A stretch of DNA of 64,000 bases, from assembly GCA_041650735.1 (NCBI GenBank), contig JBAZKP010000001.1:240786-304785 (forward strand). Direction: 5' to 3'. Below the pieces are notes generated by a model. It did no database searches. It was not told where the DNA came from and worked only from the letters and a program-made list of their open reading frames with translations. Every line of letters begins with the position of its first letter. Position 1 is the stretch's first letter. This stretch comes from an archaeon (GTDB lineage Archaea; Iainarchaeota; Iainarchaeia; Iainarchaeales; JAAZKV01). Below, in pieces: positions 1 through 47,746 of the stretch. The position numbers and the translations under genes are program-made.

Positions 1-749
1 GCTTTATCAATTTTTTCTGCAAACTCTTTCTTGCACATAATAACAGCACTTCTTGGACCGCGAAGAGTTTTATGAGTAGTTGTTGTTACTACATCAAAAA
101 AAGGAACCGGGTTCTCGTGAACCCCTGTAGCACACAACCCTCCAATATGAGAAATATCAGCAACACAAAAACAACCAGCTTCATCACAAATACTCTTAAA
201 TTCCTTAAAATCAATTTTCCTTGGATAAGCAGTGTAACCGGAAAGAACTAACTTTGGTTTTTCTTGAAGAACCTGCTTACGAATTATATCATAATCAAGC
301 ATCTCTGTCTCCTTGTCAACCCCATACTGAATGAAATTATATTGTTTACCTGAAAAATTAACTTTGTGCCCGTGAGTTAAGTGCCCGCCCTCAGTAAGTT
401 TCAAAGCCATTGCTTTATCGCCTAGCTGCATAAGAGCAGAGTACATAGCCATATTTGCAGGAGAACCGGAATTAGGTTGAACATTAGCATGCTCCGCACC
501 AAACAATTGCTTCAATCTATCAATAGCTAACTGCTCAATCTTGTCAATAACTTCATTTCCTCCATAATACCTATGCCCTGGATAACCTTCAGCATATTTG
601 TTTGTAGGATAAGAACCAAGGGCTTCAAGAACAGCAGGAGAAACAAGATTCTCGGAAGGAATTAATTCAATACCCTCTATTTGGCGCTGTTTTTCATCCA
701 AAATATACTTATAAATCTCAGGATCAAATTTCTTAATATTCTCAAACAT
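1..749 (-). CDS. glyA: Serine hydroxymethyltransferase, N-terminal 249 aa; gene runs off the window start
   Basis: Reverse translation from the ATG at 749 gives [23 protein letters not shown].. with HLTHGHK and [15 protein letters not shown]-site motifs typical of SHMT. It is absent from the ORF track because it is truncated. Confidence 0.85.
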
Positions 750-881: not shown

Positions 882-1301
882 ATGGAAACCTTTAATTTAG
901 GGGCAAAAGCCCTTATTGTTAATAAAGGAAAAATACTTTTAATCAAAAGAAGAACAACTGATGTGCACAAACCAGGGATATGGGAAATACCTGGAGGAAG
1001 AGTAACTCTTGAAGAAGACCCAACTAAAGGAGTGAAAAGAGAAGCAAAAGAAGAAACAGGATTGGATATAAATGTTATTTGCCCAATCAATACAAAACAT
1101 TTTGTGAGAGACGATGGGCAGGTAATCACCGCAATAAATTTTTACTGCAAATTAGAAGGAAAAAATACTGTTAGGTTAAGCGAAGAGCACACGGAATATT
1201 GTTGGGAAACAATTCCTAATGCAAAGAAAAAAATCTATTCAGGGTTTTTGGAAACAATTGAAAACTATGAAAAAATGAAGACAGGAGAAATGTTTAAGTA
1301 A
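882..1301 (+). CDS. NUDIX hydrolase
   Basis: Nudix box GGRVTLEEDPTKGVKREAKEETGL (GX5EX7REUXEEXGU). Confidence 0.7.
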   Translation: METFNLGAKALIVNKGKILLIKRRTTDVHKPGIWEIPGGRVTLEEDPTKGVKREAKEETGLDINVICPINTKHFVRDDGQVITAINFYCKLEGKNTVRLSEEHTEYCWETIPNAKKKIYSGFLETIENYEKMKTGEMFK

Positions 1302-1332: not shown

Positions 1333-2721
1333 ATGGAACTAAAACTCGTGGAAACAAACAAAGAACAATTAATTGAACTAGAAAACTTTTTAGAAAAAAA
1401 AGAAAACCAAAACATTACTGAAGAAACCTTTTTTGAACTCGCAAAACAAATAAACTTTTCATTCTCTATAGAAGAATGCTCAAGACTCCTAAGCCACCAC
1501 CTTTGTGAATCACTTGATTCATACACTCAGCAAAGCCAAAGATATGTAAAAATGAATGAGGGGGCTTTTGTAATCCCACAAGAAATCAAAGAACTCGGAA
1601 AAGAAACTGAAAAAGAATACATTCAACTAAACAATGAAATTTTTGAATTTTACAACAGGATGACAAAAATCAAAGAAGGATTTGCAGGAAGAAAAGCACA
1701 AGAAAGCGACTATGTCCATGGAATAAAAATTGAAGACGGAAGATATATTCTGCCAATAAGCACAACAACAAACGTATTTCAAACAATGAATTTCTCAAAC
1801 ATCACAAGATTTTACAAAACAATGAACAATATAAAAATAAATGAAAGCAGAACGCTCCTTACTGAAGCTGACAAAGCAATTTCAAAAATAATGGGAAAAG
1901 AAACTGAAAAATGCCTTGTAATTAGAAAAATACATGAGTTTGCGGATAAAGGAACTGCGGATGAAACAAAGATAATGGGGCAATACCAAAAAAACTTTGA
2001 TAAAATCAGTGCTAAAAACAACTGTATTTTAATTAATTCATTTAACGAGCCAATTCTTAGGACAGGATTAGGGGCGCTTACCTCAACAAATGAAAAAACT
2101 CCTTCAGAAATACTTTCAACATGGGAAAAAGAAAACATACAATCAGAAAAAGCCAAAGGAGTAACTGAAAGAGTTACAGGGTATGGGCACACATCAATAA
2201 TAGAACATGCAAGAACAACCTTCGGGTTAATGATGACACTAACATGCTACCACCAATTTGAAAGACACAGGCTGCCAAGCAACATACGCGAAAGGCTTGA
2301 AATAATTCCTGCTGAAAGGGAAGTGCTTTTGCCTGAAAGCGTAAAAAGAAATACATTAATAGAACAAGAATTTAATGAAAAAGTAGAAAAAATAAAAAGA
2401 TTTAGGGCAAAACTAAAAGAAAAAGGAGAAATCGGAAAAAACGCACAAACATACCTGCTAATTAATGCTGATATGGTAAAAATAATTTCCTCAACAAATG
2501 CAAGAATGGATAAAGAAATTATGTCAGAGAGATTATGTAATAATGCCCAATGGGAAATAAGACACTTATATGAAAAAAAATTAGAGACATTGAAAAACAC
2601 CACTCCTTTAATCTATGATAAAATCGGGCCAGGATGCATACGCGGAGCGTGCCCAGAAGGCACACTAACCTGTGGAAAAATAATTGAAATGAGAGAAAAA
2701 TACAATTACAATACAAAATAA
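1333..2721 (+). CDS. Fused double ThyX-like (flavin-dependent thymidylate synthase family) protein with C-terminal Cys-rich tail
   Basis: First half carries LDSYTQQSQRY (ThyX SxxxxSxRY signature) but SHH/CES in place of RHR. Second half carries GHTSIIEHARTTF..ERHRLPS (HxSxxEH..TF..RHR) and NAR..AQWEI but no SxRY. Total 462 aa is about twice ThyX length. Confidence 0.55.
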   Translation: MELKLVETNKEQLIELENFLEKKENQNITEETFFELAKQINFSFSIEECSRLLSHHLCESLDSYTQQSQRYVKMNEGAFVIPQEIKELGKETEKEYIQLNNEIFEFYNRMTKIKEGFAGRKAQESDYVHGIKIEDGRYILPISTTTNVFQTMNFSNITRFYKTMNNIKINESRTLLTEADKAISKIMGKETEKCLVIRKIHEFADKGTADETKIMGQYQKNFDKISAKNNCILINSFNEPILRTGLGALTSTNEKTPSEILSTWEKENIQSEKAKGVTERVTGYGHTSIIEHARTTFGLMMTLTCYHQFERHRLPSNIRERLEIIPAEREVLLPESVKRNTLIEQEFNEKVEKIKRFRAKLKEKGEIGKNAQTYLLINADMVKIISSTNARMDKEIMSERLCNNAQWEIRHLYEKKLETLKNTTPLIYDKIGPGCIRGACPEGTLTCGKIIEMREKYNYNTK

Positions 2722-2854: not shown

Positions 2855-3808
<954 letters not shown>

Positions 3809-3856
3809 AATATCAGAAACTAAAACTAACTTCTTGGGCGAAGTAAAAAACTTCGC

Positions 3857-4969
3857 TCATTTTTTATTTTTATAATTTAATTCAAACTCTTTCTTAAATT
3901 TCTCAAAATTATTTTCCTTAATCGCAACACGAATCTCTTTAATTAAATTAGCAATAAAAAAAGTATTGTGGTAAGAGAGAAGCATTAAACCATTTTGCTC
4001 GTAAGTTTTGAACAAGTGATGCAAATAAGATTTTGAATGGGATTTGCAAACAAAACAACCACATTCTGAATCAAGAGAAGAAAAATCTTCTTTGTATTTA
4101 CTACGATTAATCTGAACACAACCATTATGAGCAAAAATTTTTCCATGACGAGCCATTCTTGTAGGATAGGCTGAATCAAAAATGTCTACCCCGCGCTCAA
4201 CTAGATTTAGTATTTCAAGTGGAGAACCAACCCCCATCAAGTAAATAGGCCTTTCTTTTGAAACAAATTTCTTTGAAAATTCTGTAACATCATACATTGT
4301 TTTAGGATCCTCGCCAATACACAAACCGCCAAAAGCCAAACCATCAAAATTCATTGCCTCAAGAGCAATAGTGCTTTTTTTGCGAAGGTCAAGAAACGTT
4401 CCTCCTTGAGTAATACCAAAAAGCAATTGATTTGAATTTTTATGAGCTTCTTTGCATCTCAAAGCCCATTCAGTGGTGCGAACCATCGCATCAAAATAAT
4501 CCAAACGAGATTTACCGAAATGCAAAACATGATCAAGACACATAGCAACATCAGAGCCAAGAGAATTCTGAACCCGAACTGCATTTTCAGGAGTAATCAA
4601 ATGAACACTTTTATCAAAAGGATTTCTGAAAAAAACCCCTTTATCTGTTACATGATCAACAAAATCTTCTGAGAGGAGTTGAAATCCCCCTGAGTCAGTA
4701 AAAAGAGATTTATCCCAGCCAAAAAACTTGTGAATACCTCCTGCTTTTTTTATATGCTCAAGCCCGGGTTTTAAGTAATTAATAAAAGCATTAGAAATAA
4801 GGCAATCAACATTCATTTCATTTAACTGTGAATGGGAAACAAATTTTACCGCGCCCTTAGTTGCAACAGGCATAAAAAAAGGGGTTTCTAATTTACCATG
4901 CGCTGTTGAAAGAATACCTGCGCGAGCAAGAGAATTTTTGGATTCGTGAGTTAATTCAAAGCAAGACAT
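3857..4969 (-). CDS. tgtA: tRNA-guanine transglycosylase (archaeosine type, catalytic domain only)
   Basis: ETPFFMPVATKGAVKF and LMGVGSP motifs, Zn site CGCFVCKSH..H. Start reassigned to ATG 4969 (MSCFELTHES..) because the ORF-track extension to 5113 runs through the SRP RNA gene. Confidence 0.8.
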   Translation of the reverse strand: MSCFELTHESKNSLARAGILSTAHGKLETPFFMPVATKGAVKFVSHSQLNEMNVDCLISNAFINYLKPGLEHIKKAGGIHKFFGWDKSLFTDSGGFQLLSEDFVDHVTDKGVFFRNPFDKSVHLITPENAVRVQNSLGSDVAMCLDHVLHFGKSRLDYFDAMVRTTEWALRCKEAHKNSNQLLFGITQGGTFLDLRKKSTIALEAMNFDGLAFGGLCIGEDPKTMYDVTEFSKKFVSKERPIYLMGVGSPLEILNLVERGVDIFDSAYPTRMARHGKIFAHNGCVQINRSKYKEDFSSLDSECGCFVCKSHSKSYLHHLFKTYEQNGLMLLSYHNTFFIANLIKEIRVAIKENNFEKFKKEFELNYKNKK

Positions 4970-5020
4970 ACCAATTACTGAAACAAGTAGTCTTTTAATT
5001 ATTTCAAACCAAGAATATAT

Positions 5021-5292
5021 TGGACTAGGCCGGGCCGCCAGCGGTGGCTTGTAACCGGAAACCCGCTTCATGCCGGGGCCGAAGCTGGAAAAGAGGTTTT
5101 GATGTTTTTGCACTGAAAGTGCTGGTGGCGTCGAAGCTCTGTCCTTACAGGCCTTTCTGTGAAACGAACCCCGCCAGGGCAGGAATGCAGCAACGGTAAT
5201 TTTATTGAAGAGCGCTGAAGGGAAACGGAGTGGAGTTACTAGTACTCCAACAGTGCATTTACTAGAAATCCATTTCCCGGCACGTCCTTTTT
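5021..5292 (+). ncRNA. ffs: Signal recognition particle 7S RNA
   Basis: GC-rich island in an AT-rich genome. Helix-8 motif GCCAGGGCAGGAAUGCAGCAACGGUAA (GNAR-closed hairpin with AGG/AGCA loop). Alu-domain UGUAACCGGAAACCCG. Helix-6 hairpin GCACUGAAAGUGC. Ends in CCUUUUUC oligo-T with a TATA-like box upstream. Boundaries are approximate. Confidence 0.6.
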
Positions 5293-5428
5293 CTACATAA
5301 AGTGCTGCTAAACCCCTTCCTTTATCAGATTTAATTAATAATAAAAAAAGTTATGTTTAATCAATTTTTTTGGGGAAATGTTTATATATAAAAAAGGCGT
5401 TGTTCTAACATAAAATTGGTGTTACCAA

Positions 5429-5614
5429 ATGGTTTTTGAGAAAAAAATGTCCGTAAAAGACTTAATAGAACAAATGAGGGAAGAACTAAAAAAAGAGCAA
5501 GAAGAATCAAGAATGCTTGAAACCCCCTCAAGAAGAAAAAGCACAAAAAAAGCTTCAAAAACAAAAACTAAAGCAAAAAAGAAACAAAAAAAGAAAGGAA
5601 AAAAGAAAAAGTGA
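5429..5614 (+). CDS. Small lysine-rich hypothetical protein (61 aa)
   Basis: ORF preceded by TATA-like GTTTATATATAAAAAAGG about 40 nt upstream. Extremely K-rich C-terminus; no recognisable family. Confidence 0.3.
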   Translation: MVFEKKMSVKDLIEQMREELKKEQEESRMLETPSRRKSTKKASKTKTKAKKKQKKKGKKKK

Positions 5615-5623
5615 ACTATTAAT

Positions 5624-5938
5624 TCACTCTTTCTTATTGATTTCTTTGGAAATTTCTTTTTCAATCTTCTTCAAAACATTCTGAATCGTTTCAAGCAACT
5701 GCCAATCAACATACTCGGCAAAAAAACTCTTTCCATTAATAGTAAGCCTGGCATGAACTTCATGCTGAGCCCTCAAACCACCCTTCTTGTACTCCTTCAA
5801 GGATAATTGAAGCTCAGAATCGGAGCCAACCTTTTTGAAAAAATGCGTTAAAGCTTTTGAAACCAATGCCAAATCAACTTCATCAAGCTCAGGAAATTTT
5901 ATTAACTTCACATTAGGAAACTCTGACAAATTAACCAT
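5624..5938 (-). CDS. Ribosome hibernation factor-like protein (HPF/RaiA/YfiA fold)
   Basis: 104 aa. Pattern ..HEVHARLTINGKSFFAEYVDWQLLETIQNVLKKIEKEISK resembles the HPF core (..A.I...G..L.A....D.Y.AI....DKLERQL.K). Assigned by eye only. Confidence 0.45.
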   Translation of the reverse strand: MVNLSEFPNVKLIKFPELDEVDLALVSKALTHFFKKVGSDSELQLSLKEYKKGGLRAQHEVHARLTINGKSFFAEYVDWQLLETIQNVLKKIEKEISKEINKKE

Positions 5939-6015
5939 AAAACAAACACCTCAAAATACACACTATCTAATTAATGATTCAACGAGTTTAAAAAAAGATT
6001 TGGAACAAGGATGAT

Positions 6016-7776
6016 ATGGCAAATGAAGAAATAACACAATCAGAAATAAAACAAGTATTTGATTATGTTAGAGATAAAAGCAAAAAAAACGGGTTAGAAC
6101 AAACCGAAAGGATTACTGAAGAATTAAGAAAAAAAGACCTTCCAAAAGAATCCATCAAAGCAACAATCTTAATAAAAATACCTGAAGAAAAATTTAATGA
6201 AATAGAAATTAAAGAAAAATTTGGAGAAGAAACCCTCCAAATAATTAAAACAATAAAACAAATCAACACAGTGATAGAAAGAAATTTTGAAAAAATCCCC
6301 TCGGGAACATTAAGCTCAATATTACTCTCCTTATCTCAAAATTTTCAACCAATAATAATAAAAATCGCGCAAGTTACTGATGCACTAATAAACGAAGAAA
6401 ATGAGACAAAAAATAAAAAATTTATAAAACTTGCTGAAGAAATCTACGGGCCATTAGCAACAAAGCTCGGGCTAAATGATTTCGCATGGAAAATACAAGA
6501 TTACAGCTTTAAAATAACTAACCGAGAAGGGTGGGAAAAAATAAAAAAACTAGTGAACAAAACAAGGGCTGAGAGAGAAGCTTTTGTAGAAGAGGTAAAA
6601 AAAGAAGTTGAAACCCTGTTTAAGGACAAAATGAATGTACAAGTAACAGGCAGGCCAAAAAACTTTAAAGCAATATTTGAAAAACTAAAAAAAGTAAGCT
6701 TCCAAAAAATGAATGATATTTATGGAATAAGAATAATCTGCAACAAAGAAAAAGAATGCTATGAAGCACTTGGGTATGTACATTCAAAATATGACATAAT
6801 CCCTGAAGCATTTGATGATTACATCACAAAGCCAAAAACAAGCGGGTACAAAAGCATACACACAGCTGTGAAAAGAGGAAATGATATTATAGAAATACAA
6901 ATCAGAACATGGGAACAACATTTGCGAACATTAGGCGAAAATTACTGGGATTATAAAAGAATAAGAAAAGACAAAGAATTCGAAAAAGAACTCAGCTGGG
7001 AAAGGCAATTAATAGAATTACAGCAAAGCATAGGCAAAGATGCATTTGCAAAAAAAATAACTGGGAAAAAAATATTTGTGTTCACCCCAAAAAATGAAGC
7101 TATTGCACTACCTATAGGGGCAACAGTAATAGATTTTGCTTTTGCAGTACACACAGACATAGGAAAAAAAATGGAAAAAGCAAGAGTAAACTCAAAATTC
7201 GTGCCAATAGAAACAAAACTAAACAACCTTGACCAAGTGGAAATAATTATTGCAGAAAAACCACAATTAAAGAAAAACTGGCTGAACTTTGCTGTTTCGG
7301 ATAAAGCCAAAACAAAAATCAAAACATACTTTGGAATGAAAAAAACAACTTTAATTAAGAAAAATATTCAGCCAACTAATTTCAAAAAAATCAAAATGGC
7401 TGAATGCTGCCACCCCCTGCCGGGAGAAGATGTAATAGGGGTCAAAACAACAAAAAGGAAAATCGTTGTGCACAAAAAAGAATGCAAAAACATCCAAAAA
7501 ATAAGCAAAGACAAATTAATAGAAATCGGATTTGAGAGGGAAAAGGGAAAAACTGAAATAAAAATAACCGCTATTGACAGGCCGGGCTTATTGTCTGAAA
7601 TACTCGCAGAAATAAAACAAAGCAGCGCAACACTTACCAACACAAACTTTAAAATAAAAAAAACGGGCTATGCAGAAGCAATATTTGGGATAGAAATAAG
7701 CAGTTTAATGAAACTAGAACACTTAATAGACAAAATAGAAAAAATACCATCAGTGCAAAGTGCTGAAAGAATATAG
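6016..7776 (+). CDS. Long RelA/SpoT homologue (RSH) with degenerate HD domain, intact synthetase, TGS, CC and ACT domains
   Basis: Synthetase motifs GRPKNFKAIFEKL, DIYGIRII, YKSIHTAV, EIQIRTWEQH..ENYWDYK. TGS motif VFTPKNEAIALPIGATVIDFAFAVHTDIG. CCHPLPGEDVIGV. C-terminal ACT domain. The N-terminal region lacks the H..HD metal motif (RelA-like pseudo-hydrolase). Confidence 0.8.
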   Translation: MANEEITQSEIKQVFDYVRDKSKKNGLEQTERITEELRKKDLPKESIKATILIKIPEEKFNEIEIKEKFGEETLQIIKTIKQINTVIERNFEKIPSGTLSSILLSLSQNFQPIIIKIAQVTDALINEENETKNKKFIKLAEEIYGPLATKLGLNDFAWKIQDYSFKITNREGWEKIKKLVNKTRAEREAFVEEVKKEVETLFKDKMNVQVTGRPKNFKAIFEKLKKVSFQKMNDIYGIRIICNKEKECYEALGYVHSKYDIIPEAFDDYITKPKTSGYKSIHTAVKRGNDIIEIQIRTWEQHLRTLGENYWDYKRIRKDKEFEKELSWERQLIELQQSIGKDAFAKKITGKKIFVFTPKNEAIALPIGATVIDFAFAVHTDIGKKMEKARVNSKFVPIETKLNNLDQVEIIIAEKPQLKKNWLNFAVSDKAKTKIKTYFGMKKTTLIKKNIQPTNFKKIKMAECCHPLPGEDVIGVKTTKRKIVVHKKECKNIQKISKDKLIEIGFEREKGKTEIKITAIDRPGLLSEILAEIKQSSATLTNTNFKIKKTGYAEAIFGIEISSLMKLEHLIDKIEKIPSVQSAERI

Positions 7777-7837
7777 AAAAATCAAAAATAACTTATTTAA
7801 ATGCTTTCTAATTCAAATCTACAAGGAAGTGATAGAA

Positions 7838-9034
7838 ATGAAAGCAACACTAAAGGGACTAATGTTAATTATTTTACTTATATTATCAGTAAATGCTCTA
7901 GCAGCAAACCCCGAAATAACACAAGTAAGCTACAATCCAAGCCCCGCAGTACCGGGCGCAACAATAATAGTTCTAGTACAAACCGAAAACCAGGATTCTA
8001 TTGCATATGCTGATGTTACACTACAAGTTGAAAATCAATACCCTTTCACAGTAAAAACAACTGAAGGGTACCCTAATCCGAAAAATGTGGGGACAATCGA
8101 GGGATATGGAAATGCACTAACACAATTTATTATATACATTGATCCAACAGCGGAAAACAAAACATACTACCTTCCAATAACTATAACAACAAAACTCAAC
8201 CAAACAGGGAAAAAAATAAATCACCCAATTGTTATCAGCGGGCAAAACCCAGTAATAAAAGTAATTTCAATGTCAAATGACAAATTCCTTCCAGGGCAAG
8301 AAAAAGAAATAACTTTTACCCTACAAAATGTAGGAACAAGCCCAGCATATGATATAATATTAGAAATGCAAGAAGACCGAACAGTGACTGCAACAGGGAC
8401 TGTGGTTGAAAGAGACATAACTCCATTAGGAGCAGCAACCGCATACATATCCACAATTAATCCAGGAGAGAAAAAAGAAACAACACTCAAAATAAGTGTA
8501 ACAAACACTGCTACAATCAAAAACTATACACAACCAATACAAATTTCATACCGCGATGCATCAGGAGAAAGAACAACAGAAACATCATACATAGGATTAA
8601 AAGTATTTGGAACAGCTGATTTGGATGTAACTCTAAAAGAAAAAACAGGTTATATTGCACCAAGCCAAACAGCAAATATTACATTAGAATTATTCAACAA
8701 AGGGCTGGGAAAAGCTGAATTCACTTTAGTTGAATTAAAAATCAATGGAGGAACAATAGACAAACCAAAACAATTCATAGGAGCATTAGGCCCAAATGAT
8801 GTAGACACAATAAAAACAGATATTACATTCACTGCAGAGGAAGGAGAGAGAACAATTGAAGTAACCATAAACTACCAGGATTCTGATTCAACAATGAAAA
8901 CAAAAACAATACAAATACCACTAAAAACACAACAAGCAATAGCAGAAGGACCAAACATGCTATTAATACTAGTAATACTAGTAGTGATAGGAATAATTGT
9001 TTGGAACTTTTTCATTAAGAAAAAGAAAAAATAA
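7838..9034 (+). CDS. Secreted cell-surface protein with signal peptide, beta-rich repeat domains and C-terminal TM anchor plus poly-K tail
   Basis: Start set at ATG 7838 (MKATLKGLMLIILLILSVNALA) with AGGAAGTGA RBS. C-terminus is MLLILVILVVIGIIVWNFFIKKKKK. CARDB/DUF11-like composition. Confidence 0.5.
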   Translation: MKATLKGLMLIILLILSVNALAANPEITQVSYNPSPAVPGATIIVLVQTENQDSIAYADVTLQVENQYPFTVKTTEGYPNPKNVGTIEGYGNALTQFIIYIDPTAENKTYYLPITITTKLNQTGKKINHPIVISGQNPVIKVISMSNDKFLPGQEKEITFTLQNVGTSPAYDIILEMQEDRTVTATGTVVERDITPLGAATAYISTINPGEKKETTLKISVTNTATIKNYTQPIQISYRDASGERTTETSYIGLKVFGTADLDVTLKEKTGYIAPSQTANITLELFNKGLGKAEFTLVELKINGGTIDKPKQFIGALGPNDVDTIKTDITFTAEEGERTIEVTINYQDSDSTMKTKTIQIPLKTQQAIAEGPNMLLILVILVVIGIIVWNFFIKKKKK

Positions 9035-9086
9035 TAATTAAATAGCAAAGGGTAAAAAGTTTGCCCTTTGCAATAACTTTTTTTAA

Positions 9087-9821
9087 TTACAAATTATAAT
9101 CATCTTCAACTTTTCGAACAGTAATACCAGAATCAGAAATCTGTAAAGGATGCAAATCCTCGCTATGCTTAGTAGCACGCATCTTCCTAATATGCAAAGT
9201 CCTATTGCTTTGAGTGCCTATCCCCATGTAATGCAAAACAACAACCCCATCAGCAACAAACTCCTCAACCCCATACTTACCCAACTGCTTAGAATCCTCA
9301 TTAATTTCAGTTGTAAACATAGTTGTAACACCGGCACGGGAAAGCAAGTAAACCATTTTCAAAACAGCCTTCCTTATCTCGTGCTCATTATCAAAATTAA
9401 GCCCAAGCGCAGGAATAGAATCAATAACAACACGCTTAGCCTTAATTTTCTTAATAGCACGCATTAATTCAAGCAATAACTTATCTAAATCAAACCCGGT
9501 GGCAGGAAGAGAAAACTCTTCATCACTTGGGATACCAAGCTTAGCCATGGTGCCATCAACAACTTTCAACAACCCATCATCTTCTAATTTCCTTAAATTC
9601 CATCCAAAACGCAACATGTCCTCACGAATAAGCTCAGGTCTTTCATCAAGAGTCAAATAAACCCCGGGCTCATTAAACTTAGCCCCATTAACAAGAAACT
9701 GCATAGCAAAAATAGTCTTACCAGTACCAGTGCCCCCTGAAATCAAAAAACTTCTACCCTCAGGCAAGCCCCCCTCAACTAATTCATCAAAACCAAAAAT
9801 ACCAGTCTTAACACGATTCAT
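9087..9821 (-). CDS. KaiC-like single-domain RecA-superfamily ATPase
   Basis: GFDELVEGGLPEGRSFLISGGTGTGKT Walker A, 244 aa, KaiC/RadB-like. Confidence 0.7.
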   Translation of the reverse strand: MNRVKTGIFGFDELVEGGLPEGRSFLISGGTGTGKTIFAMQFLVNGAKFNEPGVYLTLDERPELIREDMLRFGWNLRKLEDDGLLKVVDGTMAKLGIPSDEEFSLPATGFDLDKLLLELMRAIKKIKAKRVVIDSIPALGLNFDNEHEIRKAVLKMVYLLSRAGVTTMFTTEINEDSKQLGKYGVEEFVADGVVVLHYMGIGTQSNRTLHIRKMRATKHSEDLHPLQISDSGITVRKVEDDYNL

Positions 9822-22358: not shown

Positions 22359-25300
22359 TTACTCTTTCCATTCATCAAGGATTAGTTTTCTTTTTACGTC
22401 TTCTTCTTTTTCATTTTTTCCCATTTTTTGTTTTAACATAAACGCGACCAGTATTATAAGTATGACAGGAATAAATCCTGCAAAAGGTATTTTTTCAAAT
22501 AAATTTCCTTGTTTTGTGCTGTTTTCTGAAAGAAGCATTAACGCATCCACATATTTATTTGAATCAATAAATTCTTTCCCTTTTATTAGCAAGCCTTCAT
22601 TGTTTCCTTTATCTATTGCAGAATTATAACTTGTAATTGCCTGCTTTTTCAGATAGTTGAAAGCTTTTTGTAATTCATTTTGTATTTCTAATAGCTTTTC
22701 CAGCTTTTTTTCGTTAGTGTCACTTGAGTTTTTTATTTCTTCCGCCATTAACCTTAATTTTTTTAATCTGCTTTCTGTAATAGGGGCAATTATTTTTGCT
22801 TTAATTATTTCAGCTTCATTCGCCACTAGATTTTCTTCAAAATAATTTAATAATATAGTTATTTCTTCGTACGCTTTTTGTATGAGTGTTTGTATTTTTT
22901 TATCTTCGATAGCCTTGTTTTTATCAAGTGTTTCTTTAAACGAAATTATTTCTTCAAATTTATTATTTAATTGGATAAATTCTTTTTTTGCTGTAGCAGG
23001 GTCGTATGAAATGCTCTCATCAATTTTTTGTTTTATATTAAGAAAATCCTGTTTAAGATAATCTAGATCCTTATTTTCAGTATTTTTTGTTGCTTTGTTG
23101 ATTTTATCTAATAGTTCTTCAGCTCCTTCTTTTATTGAATCATCTGTACTAAACACGGCTTTTGTAATTAAATCAAAAGCTTTTGCTATTGAATTCTCAT
23201 TTTCATTTCCAAAAGAGAGAGCTTTATTTAGAGTATCTTCAATTTCTTTTGCTTGGTTGTCTATTCCAAGGTTTTTCAGTTCATTTTGTTTTTGTCTTAA
23301 TTCAGATATTTTTTCTAAAAGGGTATTTTTCATTAATTCTAATGAGATTTTTTCTTGCTTTTCTTTTTCAAGGGTAATTATCCTTAGTGAATTTTCTTCA
23401 ACGGCTTTTTGTAATTCCTTAAGGGTTGCCTCTTCGCCTTTTAAAATTAGTTCTTCTGTTTTTTGCGAATAGAAATCATTTTCTAAAAGAATAAAAACAT
23501 CTTTTTGTTTTTTTAGTTCTTCTAAATAGTACTCCTTGGCTGAATCAACATATATTTTTATGTAATATTTTTTTTGCTGCTTTGGTTCAAACTCTTGATT
23601 TTTTAGTATGAGCTTGTCATTAATGATATCAAAATTTTTTTTGGTATAATCTTCACTAAAAACATAATATTTTTCAGCAAATGAATTTATTGGCAGCAAA
23701 ATTGAAATTGTTGCGGTGGTCTTTTCGCCAAAGTTATTTGATGCAATTAATTCATATTCTAATAGGTCTTTTCCTAATTCTTCTGTTTTACCAATAAACT
23801 TTGTTAAAGTGGTTATGGCGCCTGAAATATAAAAGAAAATATTTATTTTTGTGTTTGAGTTTGCTTTTTCTAAAGCAAATATTGTTCTGTCTTTATTATC
23901 ATCAAAATTTAAAATTTCTAAACCATTTGATAAAACAATTACTTTTTCAGTATTTAATGGTTTTTTTGTTGTTATTAATATTTTTTGGATTTCAGTGCTG
24001 TTGCTTAATTCAATTGTTCTTTTTAAAAGGCTTGTTTCATTAGAGACAAATATAAATTGGTCTTTTTCTTTTGAATAAATTTGTTTAGATAAAATAAAAT
24101 TTGTGCTTGTTGATCCGTATGGCAAACATTCTAGCCAGATTACTATTGTGTTTGAGTCTTTTTGGTTAATTTCGCTAATACAAGGATCTTTTTCAATCAC
24201 TTTAGTGAGTGTTGAATGAATTTCTATATAGAATGAAGAAGTTATTTTATGGAAAGGATTTGGTATAATAATTTTGGTTTCGGATTCAAAAGGAATATTA
24301 ACTTCAGCGATTTTTTCGTTTAAATAAATAATTTTTGTGTTTTGGCGCGCATAATCTATAATACTGTTTTCTGAAAGTATTTGTGCTTCTTGAAGAGAAT
24401 TTTTTATTGTTTCTTTTAAAAAATCTTTTATTGGCAGTGCTTCGCTATAATTAACTTCGTTTTCAGTAAAGTATTTCGCATATGATATGACTTTGTTTTT
24501 TAATAAATTTATTTTTTCTTCAAGAGAAGAGTCTGTGTTATAAGAGTTTATTTTTTCTAGTTCTTCTATAGTTTTTGTTAATTCAAAAAAATCTTTTTTA
24601 AAACTATTTAATTCTTCATCATAATTTAGCTCATTATCAACTTGCTGTTTTATTAAGTTGCAATTTTCTTCAAATGTTAATAGGTTTTCTTTAGAAATTT
24701 CGGTTTGTTTTAAGTTTTCAAATAAAATTTTCAATTCCTCAAATTCTTCTTCTTTAAATATTTTTTCTAAGTAAGCAATACAATCTTTTGCCGATTCTTT
24801 TTTTATCGCTTCGAGTTTTGAATAGTCTGCTATTGCTTCTTCAAGAGTTTTATTGTTAATTACCATTTCATAACAATAATCTAGTTTTTCGATTCCTTCT
24901 ACTGAACTTGTTTTTGAAGCGTAATATAGGGTTTCTTGAATTAGTTTGTCTATTGATTCATTTGTTGAAGAATAGTTGTTATTCTTTATCTGCGAAGCTC
25001 GTGAATTGCATGCTTGTCCTAGTTTTTGTGTCACTTCTTTATCTTCCCATTCTAGTGCTTTTTTTATTTTAATAAATGAGTTTAGTAATTCTTTTGTTTT
25101 GTACAATTCTTCTCCAAGTGTCAGGGTGCCTCTGCTTTTTTCTTCTCTTAATGTGATTAGTAATGTTACCTTTTCATTGAAATTTTCTGACGAGGTTTCA
25201 TTACTTGTTAAAACCACTGTGTTGAGTTCTTTTGATAATTCTTCATATTTTTCATTATATTTATTTTTTTCTAGTAGTCTTTCGCAAGCTGTTTTCTCTG

Positions 25301-26303
25301 CTTCTAGTTGTTTTAGATTTTCTTTTGCTGTATTTTGAGCTATTTCAAGATTTTTGCTTTCTTTGTTTATTAAGTCTGAAAATCTTTTAAGAGATGAATT
25401 ATTATTCCCTCCTAAATCAGAGTAGAGTTTCATGAAATCAAAAATAGGGAAATTTTGCAGGGCTGCAAGACCTTGTTTTGTATAGAATCTTGACTCAAAA
25501 TAATTAATTGCGTTTCTTAATGCCGTGCTTAAAAAAGGGAAATAGCCTTTGTTAGTCATTCCGAGTTTTTCAAGCACTGCTCCTTCAACGTACTCAAAGT
25601 TCTTAATCCAAAAAGGGGTGTTTTCAATAAGGGTTTCACGAAGTTTACTTGCGTTGGACTTATTGAAAGAATCCGCTTTTTTTAAATAATATGAAACATA
25701 GCTGTCTGAGTTTGTTGCCCCGTTATTTAATTCAGACAATATTTGCCTAAATTCGACCAATGAATCATAAATAGGTTCTTCTTTTATCATATCGACTTTT
25801 TGCTCTGTAAGAAATTTTTCTTCAGCTGCAATAATAGAAAAACTTTTTTCCATTGCTTGGTCAAGCTCAAGAAAGGAATTGTCTATGTAATTTGATGCCT
25901 GATTTATTGAGCCTGATAGTGCTGAATAATCTCCTGATTTGCATTCTTCAGATATTTTTTTTGTTTCAGTTATTGCTTTATTATAAAAAAACCAGCTTCT
26001 CCCGATTTCGTTTTTTAATGAATATAATTCACTTTCTTGAGCATAACTTAATTTTGTTTTGAATAGTTCATTTACTTTTTCAAAACAACTTTTTTCTGTT
26101 TCGCAATAAGGGATGTAAGCATAGCTTTTACTAGCCATAGAATAACAGAGATTTTTTTCTGCTCTTGTCATTTCGCCCGTGCAACCAAAAAATAAAACAA
26201 ATAAGAGGAGACTTGTAATAAGAAAAATTTTACAGGGGCTTATTCTTTGCCTAGAATTTAATTTATTTCTTTTATTATTTGTAAACCTACTTTTAGCAAG
26301 CAT
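22359..26303 (-). CDS. Giant (1314 aa) coiled-coil cell-surface protein with N-terminal lipobox-like signal and C-terminal TM anchor
   Basis: N-terminus KIFLITSLLLFVLFFGCTG. Heptad-rich E/K/L composition throughout. C-terminus IPFAGFIPVILIILVAFMLKQKMGKNEKEE. Confidence 0.6.
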   Translation of the reverse strand: MLAKSRFTNNKRNKLNSRQRISPCKIFLITSLLLFVLFFGCTGEMTRAEKNLCYSMASKSYAYIPYCETEKSCFEKVNELFKTKLSYAQESELYSLKNEIGRSWFFYNKAITETKKISEECKSGDYSALSGSINQASNYIDNSFLELDQAMEKSFSIIAAEEKFLTEQKVDMIKEEPIYDSLVEFRQILSELNNGATNSDSYVSYYLKKADSFNKSNASKLRETLIENTPFWIKNFEYVEGAVLEKLGMTNKGYFPFLSTALRNAINYFESRFYTKQGLAALQNFPIFDFMKLYSDLGGNNNSSLKRFSDLINKESKNLEIAQNTAKENLKQLEAEKTACERLLEKNKYNEKYEELSKELNTVVLTSNETSSENFNEKVTLLITLREEKSRGTLTLGEELYKTKELLNSFIKIKKALEWEDKEVTQKLGQACNSRASQIKNNNYSSTNESIDKLIQETLYYASKTSSVEGIEKLDYCYEMVINNKTLEEAIADYSKLEAIKKESAKDCIAYLEKIFKEEEFEELKILFENLKQTEISKENLLTFEENCNLIKQQVDNELNYDEELNSFKKDFFELTKTIEELEKINSYNTDSSLEEKINLLKNKVISYAKYFTENEVNYSEALPIKDFLKETIKNSLQEAQILSENSIIDYARQNTKIIYLNEKIAEVNIPFESETKIIIPNPFHKITSSFYIEIHSTLTKVIEKDPCISEINQKDSNTIVIWLECLPYGSTSTNFILSKQIYSKEKDQFIFVSNETSLLKRTIELSNSTEIQKILITTKKPLNTEKVIVLSNGLEILNFDDNKDRTIFALEKANSNTKINIFFYISGAITTLTKFIGKTEELGKDLLEYELIASNNFGEKTTATISILLPINSFAEKYYVFSEDYTKKNFDIINDKLILKNQEFEPKQQKKYYIKIYVDSAKEYYLEELKKQKDVFILLENDFYSQKTEELILKGEEATLKELQKAVEENSLRIITLEKEKQEKISLELMKNTLLEKISELRQKQNELKNLGIDNQAKEIEDTLNKALSFGNENENSIAKAFDLITKAVFSTDDSIKEGAEELLDKINKATKNTENKDLDYLKQDFLNIKQKIDESISYDPATAKKEFIQLNNKFEEIISFKETLDKNKAIEDKKIQTLIQKAYEEITILLNYFEENLVANEAEIIKAKIIAPITESRLKKLRLMAEEIKNSSDTNEKKLEKLLEIQNELQKAFNYLKKQAITSYNSAIDKGNNEGLLIKGKEFIDSNKYVDALMLLSENSTKQGNLFEKIPFAGFIPVILIILVAFMLKQKMGKNEKEEDVKRKLILDEWKE

Positions 26304-28553: not shown

Positions 28554-29771
28554 TTAGAAATATTTCATCATTATTTTTATTAAACCAGGGCGTTTAATTA
28601 GTTTCTTAGTAAAAAGAATTGCTTTTTCAGTTTTATTCAAGCTTCCGTCCCCTATTTTTAAGGCATCATCCATTGAAATGCTTTCAGCTAAATAATTAAA
28701 ATCATCATCGCTTAATTGTTCAAGCAAATGCCTTGATTTCAATCTGCGTTTTAATTCATTTCCCCTCAAATCAAACCATTCTTTTGTATAAGTTCCAATA
28801 AAATCATCAGTAAATTTATTTGCTTTTATTGCTCTTAGTGCAACTTGGGCAGCTAATCTACCGCCTTCCATTGCTATCCCTATTCCTCCACCGTGAATAG
28901 GATCAACCATGTGCCCTGCGTCGCCCGCAACAAGCAAATTATCAGCAGTCATTTTTTCAAGGAATCCTCCAACAGGTATTCCTCCTGCATTAACCTCTAT
29001 TATTGAGCCATTTTTCAGTCCTGGTTGTTGTTCAATCCATCTATCAAGGTAGTCTTTTGCAGTTAATTTTGTTTGTGATGAAACATACGCTCCTATCCCT
29101 ATTCCTACATTTGCTGTTCCGCCTCTTTTAGGAAAAATCCAGATATACCCTCGTGGAGCAACTTCAGTTCCAAAATATAAATGCAAACAGTTTTCATCAT
29201 ACCCTGAAATGCCTGTCATTTCATATTGGTATCCTGAATCAGTGTCATTCAAATTATTTTTTGTATTCAATCCGAGCATTCTTGCAGCAAGAGAATCAAT
29301 TCCGTCGCAGGCAAGAATAATTTTTCCTTTGAATTCTTTTATCTGATTATTAACTTCTACTTTTAATGTAACAATTCCATTTTCTCTTTTTGCTTCTATT
29401 ACTTGGTGTTTTAGCAGGATTTTAGCCCCTTTTTTTACTGCTTCTATAGCAAGATTTTTTTCAAACATTTTTCTTTCAAGAACATATCCCAGGATTTTTT
29501 TTTCTTTCATTTTTACTTCTTTCCCTTTAGGGCTATATAACACAGCTCCTTTGATCTCTTGTACTGCCCATTCAGGTGTTGGCTTTAAATTCATTATTCC
29601 AAACCAGCGGTTGCTTAGCCCTTCAGCACATCTTTTTGGGCATCCGATTTCCTGTTTTCTGTCAAGAATAAGCACATTTGCTTTTCCTTCTGCGAGTTCA
29701 AGTCCTGCCGCTAACCCTGATGGCCCAGCCCCTATGAGGATAGCATCGTAAATGATTTCTTTTCCAGCCAT
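28554..29771 (-). CDS. Geranylgeranyl reductase (digeranylgeranylglycerophospholipid reductase), FAD-dependent
   Basis: MAGKEIIYDAILIGAGPSGLAAGLELA dinucleotide-binding N-terminus; GDAGHMVDPIHGGGI. Start set at ATG 29771 because the upstream region encodes the ferredoxin in another frame. Confidence 0.8.
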   Translation of the reverse strand: MAGKEIIYDAILIGAGPSGLAAGLELAEGKANVLILDRKQEIGCPKRCAEGLSNRWFGIMNLKPTPEWAVQEIKGAVLYSPKGKEVKMKEKKILGYVLERKMFEKNLAIEAVKKGAKILLKHQVIEAKRENGIVTLKVEVNNQIKEFKGKIILACDGIDSLAARMLGLNTKNNLNDTDSGYQYEMTGISGYDENCLHLYFGTEVAPRGYIWIFPKRGGTANVGIGIGAYVSSQTKLTAKDYLDRWIEQQPGLKNGSIIEVNAGGIPVGGFLEKMTADNLLVAGDAGHMVDPIHGGGIGIAMEGGRLAAQVALRAIKANKFTDDFIGTYTKEWFDLRGNELKRRLKSRHLLEQLSDDDFNYLAESISMDDALKIGDGSLNKTEKAILFTKKLIKRPGLIKIMMKYF

Positions 29772-29784
29772 TCTTTCACCAGGA

Positions 29785-29964
29785 TTACTTTTTTTCAAGT
29801 TGCATTGCTCCAACAGGGCAAATATTTGTGCATGCTCCGCATGAAATACATTTTTTTTCATCAACAAAAATTCTTGTATCTTTCAAGACTATTGCTTGAA
29901 CAGGGCACACTCCAACGCATGCTCCGCAATATAAGCACTTATTTGAATTGTTTTTTACAACCAT
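29785..29964 (-). CDS. 2x[4Fe-4S] ferredoxin (59 aa), not in ORF track
   Basis: MVVKNNSNKCLYCGACVGVCPVQAIVLKDTRIFVDEKKCISCGACTNICPVGAMQLEKK carries two CxxCxxCxxxCP motifs. Its stop lies 13 nt upstream of the GGR start. Confidence 0.7.
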   Translation of the reverse strand: MVVKNNSNKCLYCGACVGVCPVQAIVLKDTRIFVDEKKCISCGACTNICPVGAMQLEKK

Positions 29965-30743: not shown

Positions 30744-32072
30744 TTAATATGCTTCCTCTTCAAATAAAACAGTTTTTCCTAAACACTTTTCAGTAAATTC
30801 TTTTATTTTAGAAAAATCTTTTTCAATTTCTATTTTTATAATGGATTTGGATTTCTGAATTCCCTCAATCTCTTCTTTTGCTTTATCAAGTTCGTGTTCA
30901 AATTCCTTTAACTTGATTTCTTCTTTTTCCAAATCCTTTTTTGCAACATTTTTTTCAAGTTCTTTGTTAATTTCGGTTTGCTTTTTTTGTATTTCATTCA
31001 TTTTCCAGAAAACCTTTCCGAAAAAATCAAAATTAATTATTTCCTGTAATGCCTCGAGTCGTTTTTCCCTTTCTTTATCCTTCAGTTCAACCATATTATC
31101 TTCAATTGCTTTTTTTATTTCCACAAGGACCTTTTTGAATAACTCTGCTTTCGGATCTTTTTTTAGGGCAATTATTGGGTTAACCAAGAATTGCTCAAGC
31201 ATTTCTTTTTCTTCTCTTGAAATCTTCCACCTTCCTGAATCAACAAGCTGTTTAAATCTTTGAAGAGGCCTGTCGATGTTCAAAAGAAGGGCAGAGATTT
31301 CTGTTTTAACTTCTTGTTTTTTGTTCATCAAATTAGTTATTTCTTCTTCAAGATGTTTAATCTCAACCATTTCTTTCCCGGTTTTTTTCTGCAACACTCT
31401 TTCCTTTTGTTCAAGAATCCGTTTTTCTTTTTCAGTTAATTTATTTATGAGCTCTTTTTCCTGGTTCTCTAGCACTAAATAATCTTTCTTCTTTTTTATA
31501 GCCAAACCTACTTTTTCTTTTATTTTTTCAAATTCAAATAATTCTTTTTCTTTTGAGAAAGTTTTGTTCATTTCATTAAAAATATTTAGTATTTCTTGCA
31601 ATGTTTCCCCGAGCTCTTTCATTTCTTCTTTGAAATAAAAACTTGTATAAATAATGTTTTTTCTGAATGCAATTATTTCTCCCGTGAGTATTGAATAGCT
31701 TTCCCCTGAATACTGCCTTGCTTCATCCAGAGTTTTTCCTTTGTCTTTAGGATCAAGTTTTTCAATAAGTCTTTTTAGCTGTGTTTCAAGCTGCTTTTTT
31801 GATGTGAGGGCAGCTTTGTTAAACCGTTCATTTTCTTTTCCTTGCAACTCTTTTCCCGAAATGACTTTTAATAAATTAGTGCTTTTGCTATGTAAATATT
31901 TGACTTCAGAAATTTTTTTTCCTGAAAAATTTTCAAGTTCTCTTTTCTTTAGTATAAATTCCTTTTCTATAAGCAAAGGCACATCCTCAATCCTTATTCT
32001 TATTACCGCGTGCTCTTTTTTGAATAATCCTTTGACGGTTTTAGGAATTTTTGCAATTAAGGAAAAAACCAT
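30744..32072 (-). CDS. Coiled-coil hypothetical protein (start set at internal ATG; track start 32174)
   Basis: E/K-rich heptad sequence; no family recognised. Confidence 0.35.
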   Translation of the reverse strand: MVFSLIAKIPKTVKGLFKKEHAVIRIRIEDVPLLIEKEFILKKRELENFSGKKISEVKYLHSKSTNLLKVISGKELQGKENERFNKAALTSKKQLETQLKRLIEKLDPKDKGKTLDEARQYSGESYSILTGEIIAFRKNIIYTSFYFKEEMKELGETLQEILNIFNEMNKTFSKEKELFEFEKIKEKVGLAIKKKKDYLVLENQEKELINKLTEKEKRILEQKERVLQKKTGKEMVEIKHLEEEITNLMNKKQEVKTEISALLLNIDRPLQRFKQLVDSGRWKISREEKEMLEQFLVNPIIALKKDPKAELFKKVLVEIKKAIEDNMVELKDKEREKRLEALQEIINFDFFGKVFWKMNEIQKKQTEINKELEKNVAKKDLEKEEIKLKEFEHELDKAKEEIEGIQKSKSIIKIEIEKDFSKIKEFTEKCLGKTVLFEEEAY

Positions 32073-32190
32073 GTTTAGATTAGGGATTAAATGTTTATAA
32101 AAGTGTACCAGCACGAGTCTTTTTTCGCAGATACTTCGCCGGCATTTTGCCCAAATAATGTTTATAACCTCCACTAAATAATTATTCTTT

Positions 32191-37739: not shown

Positions 37740-37798
37740 GATCAAAGGATAAAAATTATTTTATAAAAAAAGGTTTATTGAAAATTAAGGGTGAAAAA

Positions 37799-47729: not shown

Positions 47730-47746
47730 AAATGGTAGGGTTTTAT

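Follow-up and report, generated by a model that had tools for sequence, protein, structure and literature searches.

The 64,000-nucleotide stretch of archaeal DNA analyzed here (hereafter the window; contig JBAZKP010000001.1) encodes a 462-amino acid (aa) protein in which two ThyX domains are fused and the residues of one composite active site are divided between them. We regard this protein as probably a working flavin-dependent thymidylate synthase, turning deoxyuridine monophosphate (dUMP) and methylenetetrahydrofolate (CH2-H4folate) into deoxythymidine monophosphate (dTMP), that descends by tandem duplication and fusion from a ThyX lineage with a cysteine tail and acts as a pseudo-tetramer. 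ThyX is the alternative thymidylate synthase, essential in many microbes but absent from humans, and a drug target. The gene and its two halves, the second of which would hold the flavin adenine dinucleotide (FAD), are arranged as follows:

1333..2721, + strand: fused double thyX, complete gene (ATG start, 462 aa plus stop; from the list of open reading frames, ORFs)
1333..2022, + strand: half 1 (residues 1–230), a degenerate ThyX domain predicted to fill the dUMP-loop ('subunit C') role only
2023..2718, + strand: half 2 (residues 231–462), a ThyX domain with a four-cysteine (Cys4) tail, predicted to bind FAD and activate dUMP (roles of subunits A and B)

The whole protein matched PF02511 (Thy1/ThyX) with 155.5 bits, in two stretches. 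Scanned alone, residues 1–230 were recognized at E=1.4e-22 (profile positions 47–165 of 191) and residues 231–462 at E=2.6e-23 (positions 30–190 of 191). An initial annotation of this DNA, which had read the 462-aa product as two ThyX-like halves and proposed a PF02511 search for two domain hits, was thus borne out, each half matching by itself at E ~1e-22. The NCBIfam equivalog model for thyX (TIGR02170) gave the whole protein 88.4 bits vs. a cut-off of 87.9, and phmmer matches to the ThyX proteins of Mycobacterium tuberculosis and Thermotoga maritima spanned residues 262–428. An identical database protein (P0001) is labeled 'FAD-dependent thymidylate synthase [archaeon]'. Half 1 consists of a core (about residues 38–165) followed by a poorly conserved helical linker of 65 residues (166–230). 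Direct profile comparison of the two halves was weak (probability 5.9%), and their kinship is recognizable only via ThyX profiles.

Structure prediction agreed with this division. The AlphaFold2 model of the single chain, built from a 54-sequence alignment, reached a mean predicted local distance difference test score (pLDDT) of 93.8 and a predicted template modeling score (pTM) of 0.90, and the order of secondary-structure elements in residues 1–187 recurs in residues 231–423. Foldseek searches of the full model against the PDB returned ThyX structures only, with template modeling (TM) scores of ~0.7 when normalized to the target and ~0.35 when normalized to the query, and so a single half was aligned each time. 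A separate model of residues 1–230 (pLDDT 88.8) likewise matched only ThyX in the PDB (probability 1.00, TM 0.5–0.64). The monomer prediction suggested in the initial annotation therefore led, for whole protein and half 1 alike, to ThyX structures and to nothing else. In these models both halves are predicted to adopt the ThyX fold (a four-stranded sheet with flanking helices), half 1 appearing the more diverged. Loop 61–80 had pLDDT values of 87/86 in the full-length model vs. 58/76 in half 1 alone, weakly suggesting that it packs on half 2.

The division of the active site became apparent when characterized ThyX residues were mapped onto each half with hhalign, using as reference a T. maritima ThyX sequence that agrees with the phmmer-aligned fragments. 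The sites concerned are:

1483..1485, + strand: R51, counterpart of Arg87 in M. tuberculosis ThyX (through which subunit C contacts dUMP), aligned with invariant R71 of a clade of single-domain ThyX proteins described below
1504..1512, + strand: C58-E59-S60, site of the FAD-binding RHR motif lost from half 1 (hhalign mapping)
1519..1545, + strand: S63 to Y71 (SYTQQSQRY), the kept SxxxxSxRY dUMP/carbinolamine loop (hhalign against T. maritima S83, S88, R90 and Y91)
1732..1743, + strand: E134-D135-G136-R137, counterpart of T. maritima E144 and R147, retained by half 1 but not by half 2 (hhalign)
2188..2205, + strand: H286-T-S288-I-I-E291, counterpart of T. maritima H53, T55 and E58; the M. tuberculosis residue S71 is a subunit B contact to the FAD phosphate
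2263..2271, + strand: R311-H312-R313, the kept RHR motif (contacts to FAD phosphate, ribityl and isoalloxazine, and to dUMP; from conservation and published role)
2497..2505, + strand: N389-A-R391, counterpart of N163 and R165 in T. maritima; in M. tuberculosis, subunit B contacts FAD through R190
2530..2559, + strand: R400-L-C402-N-N-A-Q-W-E-I409, with R400 the counterpart of T. maritima R174 (dUMP activation; hhalign)
2635..2676, + strand: C435-x4-C440-P-E-G-x3-C447-G, the cysteine tail, CIRGACPEGTLTCG at residues 435–448 (conservation)

With T. maritima residues in brackets, half 1 kept S63 (S83), Y64 (Y84), Q66 (E86), S68 (S88), R70 (R90), Y71 (Y91), E134 (E144) and R137 (R147); it lost R78-H79-R80, where it reads C58-E59-S60, and R174, where it reads M164. 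Half 2 kept H286 (H53), S288 (T55), E291 (E58), Q308 (Q75), R311-H312-R313 (R78-H79-R80), N389 (N163), R391 (R165) and R400 (R174); its losses are S88, G89, R90 and Y91, replaced by R319, E320, R321 and L322, and R147, replaced by T373. The contiguous motif RHRxxSxxxxSxR(Y) is found in neither half—half 1 reads CES and then SYTQQSQRY, half 2 RHR and then LPSNIRERLEI—and the full RHRxxSxxxxSxRY signature exists only divided across the two. Judged by these alignments, the FAD-binding set (RHR; T. maritima T55, M. tuberculosis S71; T. maritima R165, M. tuberculosis R190) would correspond to R311-H312-R313, S288 and R391, in half 2 only. The predicted dUMP set (M. tuberculosis R87; T. maritima S88, R90, Y91, R147 and R174) comprises R51, S68, R70, Y71 and R137 in half 1 and R400 in half 2. 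All motifs quoted in the initial annotation were located in the 1333..2721 ORF. Its observations that half 1 has SxxxxSxRY without RHR and that half 2 has RHR, NAR and AQWEI without SxRY held in the positions and in the hhalign mapping, with SYTQQSQRY kept and CES at the RHR site of half 1, and the complementary loss that it described reaches further than noted there, to the E144/R147 pair, R165 and R174.

This complementary loss is conserved across homologs and is no quirk of a single sequence. In an alignment of 54 homologs from archaea and Bacillota, the invariant positions comprised R51, C58, E59, S63, Y64, Q66, Q67, S68, R70, Y71, E134, D135 and R137 in half 1, and H286, E291, H307, Q308, R311, H312, R313, N389, R391, R400, C402, C435, C440 and C447 in half 2; S288 and R391, the half-2 residues assigned to the subunit B role, were nearly invariant or invariant. 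Among 124 representatives reaching down to ~20% identity, S68 and R311 remained invariant, R70 and Y71 were conserved in at least 94%, and Y107, E134, D135, R137, E291, H312, R313, N389 and R400, together with C402, Q406, E408, C435, C440, E442 and C447 in the C-terminal part, in at least 90%. Core identity to the window protein was 0.67 for half 1 vs. 0.63 for half 2 in near relatives and 0.40 vs. 0.46 in bacterial relatives. The half-1 core thus matches the half-2 core in conservation; half 1 is under selection rather than decaying. The linker (166–230) is not conserved, with identities of 0.30 in near and 0.17 in bacterial relatives.

Some distant fused proteins vary at sites of the divided set: Arg occupies the R165-equivalent position of half 1 (window residue 155) in 53 of the 124 and, in half 2, the positions of H286 (30/124) and S288 (44/124). 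This variation suggests subfamilies that degenerated to different degrees.

The published architecture of ThyX gives the partition its meaning. In the enzymes of M. tuberculosis and Helicobacter pylori, three subunits contribute to each active site: subunit A supplies the FAD-binding RHR motif and M. tuberculosis Arg199 (T. maritima R174); subunit B supplies M. tuberculosis Ser71 and Arg190 (T. maritima T55 and R165), phosphate ligands of the FAD of subunit A; and subunit C supplies the dUMP-binding M. tuberculosis residues Arg87, Ser105, Arg107 and Tyr108 (T. maritima S88, R90 and Y91 among them), while the FADs of subunits A and B face one another (PMC6514825). In ThyX of Paramecium bursaria chlorella virus 1 (PBCV-1), one monomer contributes Q75 and R182 and another S88–R90 (PMC3498832), and T. 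maritima S88, R90, Y91 and R174 are catalytically important (PMC8316439, PMC11940539). In the fused protein, the A-role and B-role residues survive in half 2 only, and the C-role residues, R51 included, in half 1 only.

We propose that an ancestral single-domain ThyX with a cysteine tail was duplicated in tandem and then fused, and that the residues of the composite active site were subsequently shared out between the two copies. Half 2 would have retained what subunit A supplies (R311-H312-R313; R400, equivalent to R174) as well as what subunit B supplies (S288, equivalent to T55; R391, equivalent to R165), and would bind FAD and activate dUMP. Half 1 would have retained the supply of subunit C alone, i.e. 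the dUMP/carbinolamine loop (R51, S63, S68, R70 and Y71) plus E134, D135 and R137. As the FAD site needs residues of two half-2 domains, the working unit would be a dimer of fused chains, paired via their half-2 domains in the manner of the A–B interface, with the two FADs facing. A tetramer of 222 symmetry has four sites, built respectively from subunits (A,B,C), (B,A,D), (C,D,A) and (D,C,B). Were half-2 domains to occupy positions A and B and half-1 domains C and D, the first two sites would be complete, and the last two, left without RHR, R174, R165 and the Ser-Arg-Tyr loop, would be dead. A homodimer forming a pseudo-tetramer in which two sites are live and two are dead is, on these symmetry grounds, the most economical reading. 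We infer the dimerization, one FAD per chain, enzyme activity and the choice of which half-1 and half-2 domains are covalently joined. Of the pseudo-dimer with fewer, asymmetric sites that was one of two readings offered in the initial annotation, tandem fusion and the reduced site number are supported; the unit is instead predicted to be a pseudo-tetramer of two chains, not a lone pseudo-dimer.

Alternatively, the fused chain might work on its own, as a monomeric pseudo-dimer whose single composite site makes a second chain unnecessary. The very confident monomer model (pTM 0.90) is compatible with this, and halves 1 and 2 of one chain could already furnish the A and C roles. We nevertheless think it unlikely, as half 2 keeps S288 and R391 (M. 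tuberculosis S71 and R190), ligands of a neighboring subunit's FAD whose retention is expected only where two half-2 domains meet, and as all known ThyX enzymes are tetramers with three-subunit sites.

That the pseudo-tetramer would make dTMP is suggested by the company that its gene keeps. Our locus L001 lies on the same contig (window position = L001 position minus 8668) and extends to the left of the window; its positions 3571–9417 encode a deoxycytidine monophosphate (dCMP) deaminase, a P-loop protein resembling deoxynucleoside monophosphate kinases, NrdG, NrdD (a 49-aa fragment plus a 667-aa NrdD) and serine hydroxymethyltransferase (SHMT). Beyond SHMT, the order is NUDIX hydrolase, fused thyX and RadA. 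Two of these genes stand between the window start and thyX:

1..749, − strand: SHMT gene, 5′ part, running off the window start (L001 8179–9417 matches PF00464)
882..1301, + strand: NUDIX hydrolase gene, 31 nucleotides (nt) upstream of the thyX start and on the same strand, also present in related loci L004 and L008

The set of dCMP deaminase, NrdD, SHMT, thyX and RadA is found again in archaeal relatives (L004–L012). Since dCMP deaminase supplies dUMP and SHMT supplies CH2-H4folate, these neighbors are suppliers of the substrates of a thymidylate synthase, and the proximity of SHMT, dCMP deaminase and NrdD to the gene in close archaeal relatives makes a real thymidylate synthase most likely. 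When the 64-kb window was searched by tblastn with ThyA (Escherichia coli) and ThyX (T. maritima) sequences, only the fused gene was found, and ThyA had no match in 83 related loci.

ThyX-like enzymes of nucleoside-antibiotic pathways act on other pyrimidine nucleotides, and the fused protein could be an active flavin-dependent methylase of ThyX fold whose substrate or product differs, e.g. uridine monophosphate (UMP), dCMP or another pyrimidine nucleotide. The strong remodeling of half 1, the 65-residue helical linker and the second-shell changes E86 to Gln, N169 to Glu and H178 to Asn would fit such a shift. Yet the dUMP contacts R51, S68, R70, Y71, R137, R311 and R400 match those of the single-domain clade and of characterized ThyX, Gln at the E86 position already occurs in the single-domain clade, and the neighbors supply dUMP and CH2-H4folate. 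In Bacillota, moreover, the gene sits in a housekeeping locus and in no biosynthetic cluster; in Heliorestis convoluta, it lies between mrnC and rlmB, in the housekeeping region cysS...sigH-rpmG-secE-nusG. A change of substrate thus appears to us quite improbable.

The initial annotation had also considered a non-catalytic paralog. Such a protein, with both halves inactive, might be a nucleotide- or flavin-binding regulator or scaffold in a cell that takes its dTMP from a separate thyA or thyX. The contiguous signature is indeed missing from both halves, the TIGR02170 cut-off was exceeded only marginally, and the search for a second synthase reached only the window and its flanks. However, each known catalytic or binding residue is kept in exactly one half and is invariant in archaea and bacteria alike; such a role-consistent partition is not expected of random decay, and the half-1 core is itself conserved. 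Synteny with SHMT, dCMP deaminase and NrdDG is conserved as well, and no other thymidylate synthase was found in window or flanks, all of which leaves little probability for a protein without catalytic function. There is next to no chance that the long ORF is an artifact of assembly or sequencing that joined two adjacent thyX genes: nothing but its unusual length speaks for this, the single chain folds confidently in AlphaFold2, and the same continuous ORF was found on independent contigs and samples and in hundreds of species, including isolates and the closed genomes of Heliorestis convoluta, Dehalobacter and several Clostridium species.

Some points weigh against a pseudo-tetrameric thymidylate synthase all the same. 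The half-2:half-2′ dimer and the count of two sites follow from symmetry reasoning based on published descriptions of homotetramers, and the ThyX papers searched did not reveal which subunit contributes T. maritima E144 and R147, whose equivalents half 1 keeps. TIGR02170 was exceeded by just 0.5 bit. Secondary residues are changed even in half 2 (H178 to Asn, N169 to Glu, and H59 varying between His and Gln). Finally, the search for a second synthase covered 64 kb plus flanks, and another thymidylate synthase may be encoded elsewhere in the genome.

The origin of the fused protein could be traced by profile searches, which retrieved 5184 ThyX-related cluster representatives (50% identity) at E≤0.001, 180 of them at E≤1e-30. 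The best 150 of the listed representatives were mostly 420–520 aa long. The matches also included single-domain ThyX proteins of 228–247 aa with a complete RHRxxSxxxxSxRY. The large clade that these form (Trichlorobacter lovleyi, Geobacter, Nitrospirae, Planctomycetota, Haliovirga, Micrarchaeota; proteins P0295, P0330, P0373, P0244 and others) has several strings in common with the fused family: ASYSQQSQRYV, EDARY.LPNA, LRCC.RAQWEIR and the tail GP.C..G.CPEG...CG. Invariant in 55 of its members were H53, S55, E58, R71, R79, R81, S84, Q87, S89, R91, E138, D139, R141, N157, R159, R168, C170, C203, C208, E210 and C215. Its profile was the closest match of both halves (hhalign E=9.6e-34 for half 1, 2.9e-55 for half 2), and of the positions conserved in at least 90% of the clade, 17 are kept in half 1 only, 29 in half 2 only and three in both. 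The fused family is, on this evidence, likely a duplicated and fused descendant of the single-domain cysteine-tail clade.

Nor is the fused form rare. The nearest relatives of the window protein come from uncultured DPANN-type archaea: Ca. Forterrea (71% identity), Ca. Ainarchaeum (56–59%), and Woesearchaeota and Nanoarchaeota (~43%). When one genome per species was scanned by pattern, relatives turned up in 412 species, the best 80 of which comprise DPANN archaea and many Bacillota, both cultured and uncultured, with closed genomes among them. The family thus amounts to some 180 clusters at 50% identity and at least 412 species genomes, from DPANN archaea and anaerobic Bacillota. Two shorter database proteins resemble single halves: P0195 (220 aa) is a stand-alone half-2-like protein with RHR kept, a degenerate Ser-Arg-Tyr loop and the Cys tail, and P0170 (241 aa) is half 1 only. 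They may be truncated gene calls, or unfused two-gene versions that would imply a heterotetrameric ThyX. Source databases name the fused protein simply 'FAD-dependent thymidylate synthase'.

Chlamydial ThyX proteins are unusually long and might be fused as well. Ten long family members inspected by name (488–524 aa, along with two of 440 and 449 aa) came from Clostridium, Clostridiales, Coatesbacteria or unnamed sources and none from Chlamydia; one paper describes chlamydial ThyX as very divergent. Neither full-text searches nor ThyX reviews and phylogeny papers yielded an account of a fused ThyX or a split active site, in line with the impression of novelty in the initial annotation, although such a search does not prove absence. 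Judged by fold and residues, we count the protein as a true ThyX; what sets it apart is an architecture for which we found no description and the predicted halving of its active sites.

A further feature concerns the C-terminus. The tail of pattern CxxxxCxxxxxxC pointed out in the initial annotation is present as C435, C440 and C447, and has a fourth invariant partner in C402, two residues past R400 (the R174 equivalent). Of the 124 fused sequences, 121 or more have each of the four cysteines, and half 1 retains none of them. In the alignment, their counterparts in the single-domain clade are C170, C203, C208 and C215, which are invariant there, the pattern common to fused and single-domain proteins being R.C..AQWEIR plus GP.C(x4)C.EG(x3)CG; by this alignment, the tail predates the fusion. 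Where the single-domain cysteine clade reads LRCCERAQWEIR, M. tuberculosis ThyX reads MRASEHADVEIR. No solved ThyX structure includes the tail, none comes from the single-domain cysteine clade, and alignments to PDB chains end before the tail.

The Cys4 site may represent a metal or iron–sulfur (Fe–S) site near the flavin. Its C-x4-C-x6-C spacing with Cys-Pro resembles Fe–S ligand sets more than zinc knuckles, and the named carriers of the four cysteines are, as we take it, anaerobes (Clostridia, Peptococcaceae, Dehalobacter, Desulfosporosinus, Halanaerobiales, Negativicutes, Geobacter and DPANN archaea). We tentatively raise the possibility, more speculative than the thymidylate synthase assignment, that C402, C435, C440 and C447 bind a [4Fe-4S]-like cluster by the flavin, and that this ThyX lineage, fused and single-domain alike, is reduced by ferredoxin-type one-electron donors and not by the nicotinamide cofactors NADH or NADPH (NAD(P)H). 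Retention of the Cys4 site in the FAD-bearing half only is what would be expected of a redox partner of the flavin. The literature search found no paper connecting ThyX with an Fe–S cluster or such a cysteine site. If true, this would define an Fe–S-cluster-dependent class of ThyX, and a redox-active site would change our understanding of what reduces the flavin of ThyX in anaerobes. The window also encodes a GltD/NfnB-like protein (36393–37739, + strand; Fer4_20 and Pyr_redox_2 domains), possibly part of an NADPH:ferredoxin oxidoreductase, which matters for ThyX only if the Cys4 site takes ferredoxin electrons.

The window (guanine–cytosine content ~34%) is recognizable as archaeal from RadA (2855–3808), an archaeosine tRNA-guanine transglycosylase and the archaeal signal recognition particle (SRP) RNA (5018–5291, + strand, 127.7 bits). 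The SRP RNA overlaps the 5′ end of the longest transglycosylase ORF (3857–5113, − strand) and, by ~54 nt, the called gene (3857–5071), and the true start codon therefore probably lies further downstream. A full-length long RelA/SpoT homolog (RSH) of 586 aa (6016–7776, + strand) carries HD_4, RelA_SpoT, TGS, RelA_RIS and ACT domains; an RSH also adjoins the thyX locus in L010 and L011. The host appears to be a DPANN archaeon, and few archaea are known to us to have long RSH enzymes. HMG-CoA (3-hydroxy-3-methylglutaryl-coenzyme A) reductase, a UbiD-family protein and aconitase X are encoded close together (37778–39085, 46455–47729 and 47726–48931, + strand), a combination known from the archaeal-type mevalonate pathway, and a geranylgeranyl reductase lies at 28554–29867 (− strand). 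Two long ORFs of 1313 aa (22359–26303, − strand) and 475 aa (30744–32174, − strand) had no Pfam match at E≤1e-5.

Compared with canonical homotetrameric ThyX, also known as flavin-dependent thymidylate synthase (FDTS; T. maritima TM0449, M. tuberculosis Rv2754c, H. pylori, PBCV-1), the fused protein is predicted to have the same fold in both halves, a complete set of FAD and dUMP residues once both halves are pooled, and the same expected chemistry with like substrate-supplying neighbors. It differs in that its chain carries two domains, neither with a contiguous RHRxxSxxxxSxRY, in the predicted two active sites per pseudo-tetramer vs. four, and in the added 65-residue helical linker; its Cys4 tail is found in no solved ThyX. 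The single-domain cysteine-tail proteins are unfused and hold a full active-site set per subunit, whereas the fused family has this set divided over two copies. The plain ThyX label that annotation pipelines give to these proteins of 440–520 aa conceals both a predicted halving of the site number and a conserved Cys4 site.

Since the residues are sorted into two non-equivalent fused domains, the family provides a confirmation of the three-subunit ThyX active site that is independent of experiment. It would also offer a ready-made asymmetric scaffold, in which a mutation in one half should hit one role, something difficult to achieve in a homotetramer. Leduc et al. reportedly engineered ThyX heterotetramers from differently inactivated subunits in 2004; the principle is the same, with complementation reached by mixing in the laboratory there and fixed by evolution in a single polypeptide here. 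More generally, the fused ThyX illustrates cleanly how duplication and fusion can be followed by complementary functional losses inside one active site. The monomeric deoxyuridine triphosphatase (dUTPase) of herpesviruses, which stems from a duplicated and fused trimeric dUTPase and has its motifs spread over two domains, is another enzyme of nucleotide metabolism in which duplication, fusion and complementary motif loss cut the number of active sites, although its fold and chemistry are unrelated to those of ThyX and the likeness is one of analogy only.

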